DNA of 51,800 nucleotides, filler included, from Bipalium vagum (taxonomy: Eukaryota): NCBI GenBank assembly GCA_037834085.1. It is 3 parts of 3 records of this genome, joined end to end, with 100 filler letters (N's around TTAATTAATTAA, not from the genome) between each part and the next. Parts side by side here need not be neighbours in the genome. Positions count along the whole stretch, not along the records: positions 17,931 to 34,441 come from JBBMKC010107640.1; 2 more parts are not named here. One strand, given 5' to 3'. The notes under the pieces were generated by a model. It saw only the letters and a list, made by a program, of their open reading frames with translations. It searched no databases and was not told the DNA's origin. Positions 27,191 through 32,859 of this stretch are shown here, piece after piece. Position 1 is the first letter of the stretch; each line of letters starts with the position of its first letter. A program made the position numbers and the translations under genes.

Positions 27191-27310
27191 ATCAATCCAC
27201 ATCATTACCAAATGAATGGAATAAAGTTTTAAATAATTTTAACTTGTTACATAGTGAAACTGTTAACAAGAATGAGAACTTTGACTTAAGTCATTGCTTT
27301 AATGAAACAT

Positions 27311-29283
27311 CTTAAATATTATGATGCATGTTCATCATATTCTACTTGTATGACCCACGGGTGAAATGTATAAAGATAAAAATGAAAATTATGAAAGAAC
27401 ATTATCTGATAAAATAGGTTTTATATGTATTAGATTGGTACATAAGTTCCCGCGTTTTTTTTAATTTGTCATTCTTTGCTATTTTTAGATTTGTTTTGCT
27501 GAGTAAAAATAATTATTTTGAAATCGCTTTTTTTAAGCTACAACCATGTAATCATTATTTATTCAATAACTTAATTATATATTTTTTAGCTCTACAAATG
27601 GATATTCCAGGCAACGAAAAAATTCATTTTCGGCATTTATTATATTTTGCTTTTGCTGTGATTAGAAAGCTACAGAAGCAGCACAAGACATTTTTGCTGT
27701 CTATGGAGCTAATTCAATAGGTGCGAAGACCGCTCAAGAATGGTACAACAAACTCAAAAAAGGTAATTTTGATCTCGAAGATAAATTTCGCTCTGGTCGA
27801 CCATCCGAAATCGACGAAAAACGTCTTCAGAAGCCTTTAAATGAGAATGGTCGCCAAACATCCAGAGAACTTGCTGAAAAAATTGGCTACACTCATACGA
27901 CAATCCTCAGACACCTTCATTCGATCGGCTTTGAGCAAAAATTTCGAGCTTGGATACCTCATAAGCTCAGCGACCAAGACAAAGAAAATCGTCTTCAAAT
28001 CGAAGCACAACATCTTGCTCGGCACCGAGCGACATGCGGCCACACGGAACGATTTCTGCAGAGAATCGTCACGGGAAACGAGAAATGGTGTCTCTACGTC
28101 AATGAGACAGAGGAAAGAGTTGGTAGCTGAAGAAGTCACGCCTAAGCCACGAATAAAAAAATAACTTCATCCCAAGAAAACAATGATATGTGTATGGTGG
28201 GACTGGGAGGGTTTAGTGCACTGGGATATACTTGAGAAAAATATGATTCTTGACAAAGAACTCTATGTACTCCAGTTGCAAAGAATGAACGAAGCTATCC
28301 AACTGAAAAGTTCAGATTCATGTCATTTCATGACAACGCACGGCTACACACAGCAAATATAGTCAAAATAGCCTTCCAAGAGCTCAAATTGGAGATTCTT
28401 CAACATCCGCCGTACTCCCCTGACCTTGCGCCAACTGACTTCCACCTCTACCGCTCATTGTCTAATCAAATAATGGGTGTGACATTCAAGAGCGAGGAGG
28501 ATGGTATCAAAAAATTTGTTGAGAGGTGGAAGCAGGTCGTGAACAATAACGGAGACTATATTACTGATTGATTTATTATTTGTAATATTAATAAAATAAT
28601 AGTTGGTTTTCACAAAAAAGTTTTCAAAAAAACGCGGGAACTTATGTAACAACCTAATAGTTCATTTAGAGTATCCTACAGAGTTACATGAGAAAACTAA
28701 AATCTTTCCCCTATGTCCAGAGAAGAATAAAATAAATGATTTATTATTAACCAATTATCAAATTATAAATAAAACGGTTACCATATAATGAGAAATTAAT
28801 GTTAACCCAATTTGATAAAAATGAATGTATGGTGAAGGGTCATTATTAGACTTTTATCTTGATCAAAGAATGATTTTTTTTAAAAAAGTACATAAAACAT
28901 ATTTAAAAAATCTACTTGGTTAAAAGGTTATATAGAATTTAATATTGACAAAAGAAATGAGTATAAAAGTAATAATAATGATTTTGGTGATTTCTTTTTT
29001 AAAATTTTAAATAATGCTTTTTATGATAAAACATTAGAAAATGTGAGAAATAGACAAAATGTTGAAATTTTTTCAATTAATACAAAATTTCAATTAAATC
29101 TAAAATAACATTTGAAAGATCTAAAATGATACAGAAACTATAATTGCATGTCACATAAAATTTGATAAATTTAATTATATAGGATTTTTTGTATTAGAAC
29201 ATTCTAAACTAATAATGTATGACTTTGTTTATAATTGTTTAAATAAAGAATTATCTGGGAAATATAAAATTCCTTTTCGTGAT
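27311..29283 (+). pseudogene. Protein-primed DNA polymerase B (Polinton type), frameshifted and split by a mariner
   Basis: LKYYDACSSYSTCM (motif A) | mariner | VHLEYPTELHEKTKIFPLCPEK, EKLMLTQFDK, FKKSTWLKGYIEFNIDKR, FFKILNNAFYDKTLENVRNR (motif B, KxxxNxxYGK), NYIGFFVLEHSKLIMYDFVYN, then FRD (TTT CGT GAT, two substitutions from YGD). Confidence 0.88.
27430..28657 (+). mobile_element. Near full-length mariner (mellifera-like), defective, with TA target duplication
   Basis: ~30-bp TIRs TTAGATTGGTACATAAGTTCCCGCGTTTTTT / AAAAAACGCGGGAACTTATGTAACAACCTAA (2 mismatches), flanked by TA at 27428-27429 and 28658-28659. Transposase 27598-28571 has WIPHKL, TGNEKW, CVWWDWEG, HDNAR and YSPDLAPTD, with frameshifts. 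Confidence 0.96.
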
Positions 29284-30195
29284 AGTGTAATAGAATATAC
29301 ACCAATATTAATAAAAAAAAATAATAAAATATACTGTAGAGAAATAAGTAAAATATTGAGTTGATTCATAGGTTCGTGCATTTTTAATAAAAATATTATG
29401 CATGTATTAAAGATAAGAATCTAGAAATCACAAATATTATTCAGAGAAATAAAACACATTATGTTCAACTGTCTTAATCCAACGATGGGCAAGTTGTTTA
29501 ATGCCACTCCTGTACCATGCTTTGGAAAGCAAAAATTCACGACATCCATTTTCAAACTGTTTTATATTATCAAACTGTCGTTCTCTAAGGAAATCTTGAC
29601 TGAACGCAGGATGTGGTAAAAATTTCGATTCCTTCTAATTGGATTATTTTATTTTTCGTTACTGGCGCAGTATGTGGACGAGCATTATCATGTTGCAGAA
29701 GCACCCGCTTTCTGTTGACTAAAGCAGGATATTCTATGGCCAATTGTTGGTACATCCGATCGAGTTGAGCAGAATTTAACTCAGCAGTAATAGTTTTGCC
29801 ATCTGGAAGTACTTCGAAGTGTATAATCCACTCAAAGTTTCACCACACGCAAAACAGGATCATTTTCCGAATCTATCTGTTTTGGAACCGCCTTGGGCTT
29901 TTGGCCTGGTTCCAACCATTGATTTCTCCTGTTCGGATAAAATATATTGCGAAAATAAATTTATACCTGATTTTATTTTAAATTCTTCTTTAAATATAAG
30001 ATATTGGATTTTCCTAGGATTTTATGCTGCAGATGGATATAAAAATCAAATTAGTTTTACACAAAAGGGAAAATTAGTGTTTTCTCAATTATATTTTAGC
30101 TTTTTCATTAGGATTAAATATAAAAACAATTACTATAAAAGATAAATTGAGTAATTGTAGATCTTATCAATTAACCATATTAAAAACATACAAAT
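29284..30195 (+). other. Intein remnant with LAGLIDADG homing endonuclease at the pPolB YGD|TDS site (interrupted by a mariner, internally deleted, C-terminal splice block not found)
   Basis: In frame directly after (Y>F)(G>R)D: SVIEYTPILIKKNNKIYCREISKI (Ser-start block A). After the mariner: KIYCENKFIPDFILNSSLNIRYWIFLGFYAADG..ISFTQKGKLVFSQLYF/LAFSLGLNIKTITIKDK..YQL (blocks D, E, H). Confidence 0.75.
29356..29938 (-). mobile_element. mariner 3' half, inserted in the intein
   Basis: TA|TTGAGTTGATTCATAGGTTCGTGCA TIR. Minus strand gives NRRNQWLEPGQ, YPALVNRKRVLLQHDNARPHTA, RSGIKQLAHRWIKTVEHN; the YSPDLAP region is deleted. Confidence 0.88.
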
Positions 30196-30699
30196 AATTA
30201 TTTATATATAAATAATATTTTTAAAAATGAGTGAAATAGATAAAAAATATTTTGACTTAAGCTAAGTGTTGTATTTAGAAAATGTATATCCTGAATTAGA
30301 AAATATAACAATAAATTCCTTACAAGATATTAACAATTATTTATAAATGGGATATTTTATTTTCCCTTGGGAAGATTTGAAATTTAAATTTTTTATTTTT
30401 TAATAAATCACACACTGAATATAATGAATGGAGTGAATTATACAAAGACAAATTAAATATAATAACTAAATCACAAAAATATTATTTTTTAAAATTTTTT
30501 AAATGAAGAACGAGAACTCTGATATCGATAAAAGAGAAGCTTTAAATAACAAATTTACTTTTCAAATAAAAACAAAAGAATATCATAAATGTTTTCAAAT
30601 AAAAAAATTACAGATTTTTAATCAAAATTAAATAATTGTAAACATTTTCATCTAATCCATATTAAAAATTAGAGAAATATTCCAGAAAATAAAATATAA

Positions 30700-30925
30700 C
30701 ATAATAATTATCATAGAAAAAGAGAACAAGAAAATCCATTGTTAAAATTTTTTAAAAAAGGTATATACTACCTTAAATAGAGCTTTAAAAAAACAAAGAG
30801 AGCTTAAAAATTCAAAAGAATTACTTGGATGTGGTTTTGATTTTCCATATGAATGGTTTCAATTTCAATTTTATGGTTTCAATTTCAATTTTATGGTGGA
30901 ATAAATTTTGAAAATTAAGGAAATT
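30700..30925 (+). pseudogene. NCLDV-type HNH endonuclease remnant
   Basis: YHRKREQENPLLK / TLNRALKKQRELKNSKELLGCGFDFPYEWFQFQFYGGINFEN*G after removing a 20-bp tandem duplication. Resembles the 'ELLGCSIEFLKEWIEFQF..MNWENYG..WHIDH' family; the HIDH part is missing. Confidence 0.55.
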
Positions 30926-31740: not shown

Positions 31741-31855
31741 CTTGTTTCACATATTTTAAATTTACAAAATCATTATCATTTATTGGATCTGCTACATTTA
31801 CTGTTTTGTTATTATTCATATTCATGATTTCTATGATAGCATCACCAGTAACATA
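31741..31855 (-). pseudogene. Fibre/tail-like repeat motif of a Polinton accessory structural protein
   Basis: YVTGDAIIEIMNMNNNKTVNVADPINDNDFVNLKYVK fits the 'MNNNKITNLADPxxDxDAVNKKYVD' motif. Confidence 0.55.
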
Positions 31856-32040
31856 TAAAAATTTATTTTCAGATTCAGTTTAAATAAAAGTATTTCTTCT
31901 TTTATTTGATTATTTTTATTTTTATAATCATTATAAAAATAAAGAGTTAAAATATGTAAAATTATTATATTCGGCTAAGCCTTTGGGAACCTCGTACACA
32001 TCCATTTTTAATATTTTTATTGAAGCTTTGTCTCTAAGAG

Positions 32041-32345
32041 CGTATTGAACAGATTTTCTTTTTCAAATATTATTTTAGAAAAATCAATATTATTAAATAA
32101 TTTGTATAAAACATATAAAGTTAATTGTCTACAATATTTTAAATCCGTTTCACTTTGAAAACCTATTTTATTATAATCTTTAACAAGCGGTTCTAATTTA
32201 TCAACTTGAGGTAAACCATAAGAATCGAAATAAATATTTTTATAATATTCAACCTAATGAACTCATTTTTGATTTAAATTTTGATAATTAATAATTAATG
32301 GTTTTTCAAATTTTATTCTTTTTTCAGTAAAAAACCTAAAATCAA
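32041..32345 (-). pseudogene. Adenain-like (C5) cysteine protease of the Polinton
   Basis: LIINYQNLNQK*VH*VEYYKNIYFDSYGLPQ..YNKIGFQSETDLKYCRQLTLYVLYKL carries the H, D, Q, C catalytic pattern (GxHWV, YFDSYG, Q...CG) with nonsense mutations. Confidence 0.82.
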
Positions 32346-32859
32346 ATAATTTGTGGAGCATCCCACAATAAACATTTCATTGTGACTTTTAATGGTTATG
32401 ATTTTGGAATATCCCATAATAAGCATTTTGCTGTTTATTGATTGTGATTTTTATGAAAACATTTCATTCTAGATCAATAAATATTATGATTTTATTTTTT
32501 TATTTTTATGTAAAAGATTTACAGCTGATGATCAGTATCTTCTTAAATACCTTCTTAAATTATTATTTTTTTTAATTTATTTATTAAATATTAATTATAA
32601 ATTATTACCAAAAAACAAATAAACAAAGAATTTATATAAAAAACAAATATAGAAAATAGAAATTACTAAGAATAGAATTAATGGAAATAAAATTATATAT
32701 GTTACTAAAAATAAATTTTAGACAAATAAAATTATATCAATTTCTAAAAATAGAAATTATAATAAAAATTTTTATATATAAACACAAGAAAAACAGTAAA
32801 AACTCGAACAATAAATCTCACCAAAGGCAGAGATTTATTAAATTTTAAATCAGGCAGTA

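Follow-up and report, generated by a model that had tools for sequence, protein, structure and literature searches.

The 51,800-nucleotide (nt) stretch of Bipalium vagum DNA analyzed here (assembly GCA_037834085.1; "the window") contains a region that, from its gene content, is a dead remnant, about 5 kb long, of a Polinton-type element, and the broken gene of its protein-primed family B DNA polymerase (pPolB) holds the remains of an intein, inserted at the Pol-c site. The window is formed by three records joined by 100-nt spacers, and the element is located on the middle record (17931-34441). The reading favored here, with a probability of about 75%, is that a Polinton-type element carrying a Pol-c intein integrated and died, and that the family of this intein splices, homes among pPolBs, and has a giant-virus-type origin. 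What is new is this Polinton-specific, apparently mobile intein family, together with its trace in a probable animal genome; the fossil of the window is itself a case of ordinary decay.

The viral pieces have been recognized via relatives: a Pfam search of 25001-34440 finds mariner transposases only, and no viral piece is matched directly. The pPolB, described as frameshifted in an earlier note on this DNA, is identified by P0001, a PF03175 polymerase, which is the single relative matched by the junction piece 29125-29361 (79 residues; E 6e-7) and which, when aligned back, covers 28657-29247 (E 7e-29) and 27308-27355; the motifs quoted in that note are found there. The gene corresponds to columns 761-1049 of the 1181 columns of the pPolB profile, from motif A to the first Asp of motif C, and is split into five frame pieces, one of which (the first frame of 28660-29283) has five in-frame stops. 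The first ~750 profile columns have no match in the window, the segment 27195-27300 matches pPolB only weakly (E 0.21), and the C-terminus is missing after the intein remnant.

The intein is matched by a profile built from 89 Pol-c inteins at 29942-30181 (profile positions 221-305; independent E value, iE, 2e-9 to 3e-9) and at 29284-29370 (positions 1-30; iE 0.013), as the earlier note had proposed, and 81 of 287 collected proteins match the endonuclease block. At 29284, there is an in-frame insertion after the motif-C Asp, with Ser as its first residue, and the window aligns straight across the pPolB/intein junction with P0016, P0122, P0127, and P0128. Positions 31-220 and the C-terminal splicing block are deleted, including the Thr-x-x-His of block B and the C-terminal Asn with the following Thr, Ser, or Cys. 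Only the second half of the LAGLIDADG endonuclease is present, both motifs being seen in the relatives, and when compared with the PDB this half has a weak match to PI-PkoII (E 0.15). Because the needed blocks are deleted, the window's own intein is predicted to be able neither to splice nor to home.

Between these pieces are mariners missed by the earlier note: a whole one at 27428-28659, a cut one at 29354-29944, and a third one at 26522-27194, which abuts the left edge and ends where the pPolB remnant begins. The first two make up 1.8 kb of the flagged 5.3 kb. The whole copy has the terminal repeats, TA duplication, and helix-turn-helix plus DDE transposase of a Mos1-type mariner (37-nt inverted repeats at 92%, TA at both ends, Pfam HTH_48, Transposase_1, and DDE_3). 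The cut copy, on the minus strand, has kept one terminal repeat, its end matching the mariner-2 repeat at 21 of 30 nt, and has lost its 5' half along with ~190 intein codons.

The other Polinton gene that can be recognized, also broken, is the adenain-type protease (Table 1). The profile of the relatives' proteases matches 32322-32062 on the minus strand (E 9e-7), the His, Asp, Gln, and Cys all align, the alignment matches the adenovirus protease in the PDB (E 4.5e-4), and relatives match Peptidase_C5. All five features named in the earlier note (pPolB, intein, HNH-like open reading frame (ORF), fibre motif, and protease) are indeed where it had placed them, and the convergent gene orientation is correct. 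Its reading of the region as an endogenous Polinton holds for the origin, because the relatives L001 and L005 carry Polinton core genes (A32 ATPase, rve integrase, and double-jelly-roll (DJR) capsid; 62 related loci) and in L001 the pPolB is convergent with the protease and fibre genes, as in the window. It does not hold for a whole element: no core genes other than pPolB and protease are matched by profiles within the window, the best iE being 0.19 for the rve integrase, which the relatives have, and 2, 7.6, and 3.8 for ATPase, major capsid, and minor capsid. Terminal inverted repeats, a target duplication of 5-8 bp, and a length of 13-25 kb are not seen in the window either, and the 25 longest inverted pairs of each search include nothing but mariner ends, spacers, and pairs that are rich in AT or made of microsatellites. 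With integrase, ATPase, capsid, and terminal repeats missing, the region is therefore classed as what is left of a Polinton-type element and not as a whole one. It is very unlikely that the source was an integrase-less Polinton-like virus (PLV) or virophage, caught by accident, and not a transposing Polinton. The window without integrase, terminal repeats, or target duplication would agree with such a source, as would nearest-clade contigs that are too short to reveal an integrase; however, the rve-integrase cluster is found in 18 of the 62 related loci, most of the others being short, and the nearest-clade P0006 has 173 members on contigs of up to 414 kb, as expected of a transposon.

Table 1. 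Features of the remnant and of the mariners in and beside it (positions along the window)
Feature	Positions	Strand	Evidence and remarks
Mariner transposase remnant	26522..27194	+	Pfam HTH_48, Transposase_1; tblastx to mariner 2; cut where pPolB remnant starts
pPolB piece 1, motif A, N-terminal part missing	27195..27427	+	P0001 match 27308-27355; 27354-27428 E 1e-4
Mos1-type mariner, full-length but broken, inside pPolB	27428..28659	+	37-nt inverted repeats, TA ends, Pfam
pPolB piece 2, motif B to first Asp of motif C	28660..29283	+	iE 4e-25; three frames
Intein N-terminal block, Ser first, in frame at Pol-c site	29284..29353	+	Profile positions 1-30
Mariner remnant inside intein	29354..29944	-	Transposase_1 E 1.8e-5
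Intein LAGLIDADG endonuclease, second half, one frameshift	29945..30194	+	iE 2e-9; 81/287 proteins
ORF-like remnant	30228..30500	+	No family or relative matched
Truncated free-standing viral HNH-family gene	30503..30927	+	Four colinear profile pieces, 38.4 bits
ORF-like remnants	30945..31700	-	No significant match
Fibre-like repeat motif	31724..31879	-	E 4.5e-4; E 1e-4 to L014; PHROG E 0.0012
Adenain-type (C5) protease remnant	32062..32460	-	Relatives' protease profile; PDB; 2 in-frame stops within 32062-32322

The intein family has been collected by searching 1.84 billion representatives, with the best 150 listed. Among the 120 long relatives listed, one, P0016, has Pfam intein domains; its insert matches 417 proteins, and the 120 listed of these are mostly RNA-primed family B polymerases, one of them named Mimivirus. 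The intein profile matches 250 of the 836 collected sequences. The pPolB hosts are P0016/P0242, P0122, P0127, P0128, P0134, P0325 (partial), and L039, and the C-terminal Asn followed by Thr, Ser, or Cys is present in P0016 and in the other six. The Thr-x-x-His of block B and both endonuclease motifs are seen in all five full-length pPolB inteins checked, and the pPolB inteins have a C-terminal signature of their own in common. The Intein_splicing match is above the Pfam cut-off for P0128 (37.7 versus 35.8), which also has Hom_end and LAGLIDADG_3, and below it for P0016, P0127, and P0134. The PDB sequence search with P0128 gives no matches, and P0001 and P0128, as single queries, find nothing among the viral contigs. 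In L039:10-4197, a metagenomic pPolB, the intein is split over two reading frames, by error or decay, and its close relative L030 is empty. P0123, P0126, P0129, P0139, P0292-P0295, and others are RNA-primed family B polymerases (1400-2400 residues) with apparently at least two related inteins, in motif B and motif C.

In the intein tree (45 rows), the seven pPolB inteins and the window form one starred branch (99/97), apart from 37 others, a sample (9 picked, 28 drawn at random) of the about 200 extracted. It is most improbable that the endonuclease block of the window is a fragment left by an endogenous giant-virus polymerase and adjoins the pPolB by chance. Although the block has P0133, an RNA-primed-type polymerase, as its single best BLAST match, and the approximately unbiased (AU) test does not reject a window intein grouped with five non-pPolB inteins (p 0.128), the N-terminus of the intein is in frame with the pPolB at the exact site, both intein pieces are colinear around the mariner, the tree puts the window with the pPolB inteins, and these are three of the top seven matches.

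The polymerase of P0134 belongs to the other, archetypal PF03175 class and has no match to the profile of the window's pPolB family. Its intein is inside the pPolB intein clade, which points to a jump between polymerase classes. The label "group 2" given to the window's pPolB in the earlier note is not confirmed, as the PF03175 scores (52-64 bits for the window's family where matched, 111 for the class of P0134) point away from it. In the available portion of PMC8502044, group 2 takes in the archetypal PF03175 class (Alpha), and group 1 the divergent one (Beta), so that Beta/group 1 is the more likely assignment. In the polymerase tree (70 rows), the window is sister to P0001 (100/99), and the other members of the clade have empty sites; the six intein carriers need six changes, at least five of which are forced by starred branches. 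P0016 and P0122 are 80-86% identical to empty relatives over the 200 residues before the site. P0102, a pPolB of the window's family, is labeled Sulfurimonas sp. in UniRef, probably through a contig of eukaryotic or viral origin that was binned with bacteria, and one member of the wider pPolB family carries the name of the soft coral Dendronephthya.

Signs of homing are seen in the 90%-identity cluster of P0128 (with P0428-P0441; 136 members, 40 read, 15 listed; contigs of 57 kb to 1 Mb). Seven of the 15 listed have an intein of 346-348 residues, six are empty, and two are short of the site. Away from the site, identity between filled and empty copies is 97-100%; in the 25 residues on each side of it, identity drops to 83% and 75%, and the 10 fixed differences between the two sets, in about 1190 residues, all fall at -7 to +43 of the site. 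This clustering of flank differences is the pattern predicted for co-conversion from a more distant donor. The empty copies have non-canonical motif-C variants, and the altered motif C may be an escape from the nuclease. An ancestral intein in the window's pPolB family, lost many times without homing between Polinton copies, is improbable: precise loss leaves the 10 site-packed differences in otherwise near-identical copies unexplained, and the same intein clade occurs in P0134, outside the family profile, even if all carriers of the main-class group are within one 35-row half of the polymerase tree and the change counts cannot separate gain from loss. With near-identical copies, megabase-scale contigs, and the intein present or absent, the P0128 cluster is also the best system for studying the pPolB intein family.

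In inteins, splicing alone restores a split active site, and the insert spreads when the LAGLIDADG domain cuts a site and the cut is repaired. The polymerase of the living element would have been made as a precursor, its active-site motif split by the intein, which would remove itself by means of Ser1, Thr-x-x-His, His/Ser/Lys-Asn, and Thr+1, restoring the enzyme; these residues are all present in the intact relatives. The nuclease would cut the empty sites of other copies, and repair would copy the intein with its flanks, as the conversion-like tract and the intein's patchy occurrence suggest. On the unrooted tree, the most likely course is a single entry from a giant-virus-type polymerase, followed by spread among pPolBs of two distant classes. 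A Polinton-type element, having a polymerase with such an endonuclease-bearing Pol-c intein, would then have integrated into host nuclear DNA and died; as is visible in the window, mariners inserted in the polymerase and in the intein, deletions took both polymerase ends and most of the element, and stops and frameshifts accumulated.

The host of the window DNA is very probably an animal, as the first record has a spliced ADAM gene (disintegrin E 2e-14, ADAM_CR E 6e-13, EGF-like E 3e-5) and mariner pieces are present on all three records; Mos1-type mariners are mainly found in animals. It is unlikely that the middle record is from a co-sequenced protist, fungus, or symbiont and is not animal nuclear DNA, in which case the intein would be uninformative on animals. 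Between the records there are N spacers with a stop linker, no host gene is recognized on the middle record (17931-34441), the ties of this record to the other two are limited to G+C, microsatellites, and a mariner match of 79 nt, and its tetranucleotide correlation with them is low, 0.31-0.33, compared with 0.47 for those two with each other. However, the G+C values are alike (0.270 versus 0.278 and 0.270; 27% for the whole window), TAT microsatellites are common to the records, a mariner stretch of 79 nt has a counterpart on the third record at 76% identity, the middle record has three Mos1-type mariners, and the ADAM gene of the first record has disintegrin, cysteine-rich, EGF-like, and membrane parts.

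Several points weigh against the history of an integrated Polinton with a homing intein. Splicing and cleavage activity are predictions from sequence; the N-terminal intein block is weak by itself (iE 0.013); the window fills only 99 of the 334 columns of the intein tree (30%), the bootstrap of this tree is not settled (0.984), its outside inteins are only the sample of 37 from about 200 extracted, and the AU result of 0.128 leaves the window free to group with five of the non-pPolB inteins. Five polymerase rows labeled empty have an unread site, including P0001, the window's closest relative. Near the site, variation is also seen between one empty copy of the P0128 cluster and another (87-90%), so that the region is variable in any case, and this cluster is known here from proteins, not DNA. 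The ADAM host gene is on a different record from the element, across a 100-nt spacer. A wider reading can be put forward tentatively and falls a little short of probable: Polintons would own a still mobile Pol-c intein family that homes in eukaryotic nuclei, crosses both polymerase classes, selects altered empty motif-C sites, and has entered animal germ lines, so that intact inteins would occur in animal transposons.

When compared with known systems, the element resembles the Polintons/Mavericks (adintoviruses) in the available portions of PMC8502044 and PMC10748475 by its pPolB, adenain protease, and fibre-like gene, and by the ATPase, rve integrase, and DJR capsid of its relatives; it differs in being only a fragment and in a pPolB that carries a true intein. 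The word intein has no occurrences in the main text of either paper, and the supplement text of PMC8502044 has neither this word nor the three polymerase motifs, so its sequence files are probably outside that text. The Pol-c site of Mimivirus and archaea is YGD|TDS in the part of PMC549080 available. The Mimivirus PolB intein described there, also a Pol-c allele, shares the site, the Ser...Asn|Thr ends, and the LAGLIDADG nuclease, and is 37-43% identical to the pPolB inteins; its host is an RNA-primed giant-virus polymerase, whereas here it is the protein-primed polymerase of a 15-20 kb element, and the pPolB inteins form a separate clade with their own C-terminal signature. HNH and VSR inserts in nematode pPolBs, described in the accessible text of PMC10748475 without the word intein, likewise place a nuclease domain inside a pPolB; they are described without splicing motifs, whereas the intein here has them and lies within a catalytic motif. 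Nuclease inserts in Polinton polymerases have been suggested to stem from intein invasions (PMC11071308, 2024, in the portion available). In the available text of PMC10710043, nuclear scaffolds of Klebsormidium, Tetrabaena, and Hondaea have viral-like DNA polymerases with inteins, and there too a viral polymerase gene brings an intein into a nuclear genome; those hosts are algae and a protist, whereas here the vehicle is Polinton-type and the host probably an animal, and that text is without the word polinton. Inteins are described as absent from metazoan genomes in the available part of a survey of those of eukaryotes (PMC5784728), and PMC12220804, PMC3671162, PMC13768754, and 10.1101/299784 concern, in their accessible parts, inteins in general or in giant viruses. 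A literature search, which had the supplements of PMC10748475, PMC5784728, and PMC10710043, most subscription papers, and Repbase notes outside it, found no splicing intein described for the pPolB of a Polinton or PLV.

Complete pPolB inteins, present in some copies and not in near-identical others, make the intein-invasion idea of PMC11071308, as given in its available portion, testable, and pPolB inteins may be a route for inteins into multicellular nuclear genomes. As homing can take place only where a filled copy and an empty one are together in a nucleus, shared inteins would mark Polintons and giant viruses that met in the same cells. The copy in the window, being dead, matters as a fossil of this spread.

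The HNH-like ORF of the earlier note is a truncated gene. Single-frame matches of this piece are weak (iE 0.06-0.13), and the frameshift-aware scan with an 82-member profile gives 38.4 bits, compared with at most 22.2 in 150 shuffles and at most 29.2 in 32 real control strands. Four colinear pieces cover positions 11-196 of the 257 of the profile, and the catalytic core (200-225; positions 197-257) is absent from the window gene. Against this call, an earlier 10-member profile was at chance level, and under the regional background an unrelated mariner ORF scored above the HNH piece. The phage collection has no match to it. In the relative L024, an HNH-family gene follows the pPolB; one of five members scanned of the L024-type family matches Pfam HNH (E 0.003). 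A link of the piece to the nematode pPolB2 HNH insertion (PMC10748475) was considered and not established. The earlier suggestion of a lineage exchanging genes with nucleocytoplasmic large DNA viruses goes too far: the clade of the intein, though related to the Pol-c inteins of giant viruses, is specific to pPolBs, and the HNH family, which in the window has lost its catalytic core, is widespread in viral contigs in general (531 of the 608 stretches examined; 9 of 64 parts).

The fibre-like motif (31879-31724, minus strand) has a match in contig L014, to the gene that comes directly after the protease (E 1e-4), and a weak one to phage tail fibres (PHROG E 0.0012). Fibre-motif genes are found directly after the protease in L005 and L014, with one short gene between in L001. 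The fibre-like genes L001:5447-6238, L005:14775-15470, and L014:15184-16389 end in F5/8 type C (discoidin) sugar-binding domains, and L001 and L005 also have a PLA2-like gene. For the remnants at 30228-30500 and 30945-31700, in which the earlier note saw possible further viral genes, profile and relative searches find no family or relative. Atlas searches in this analysis gave only leads below 0.9, or none.

The spacers 17831-17930 and 34442-34541 are identical (44 N, a 12-nt stop linker, 44 N). The ADAM gene, at 3875-7250, encodes disintegrin, cysteine-rich, and EGF-like domains, a membrane segment, and a long tail, and has several introns of 45-80 nt. A nematode host, to which a match to the Sre receptor in the window (E 0.0033) had pointed, is rejected: this match is below the cut-off and overlaps a low-complexity frame, and the splice acceptors of the ADAM gene are without the TTTCAG consensus of nematodes. 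More decayed Mos1-type mariner pieces of several subfamilies are located at 9380-9779, 15065-15439, and 42600-43200, with 24-58% protein identity over short segments.

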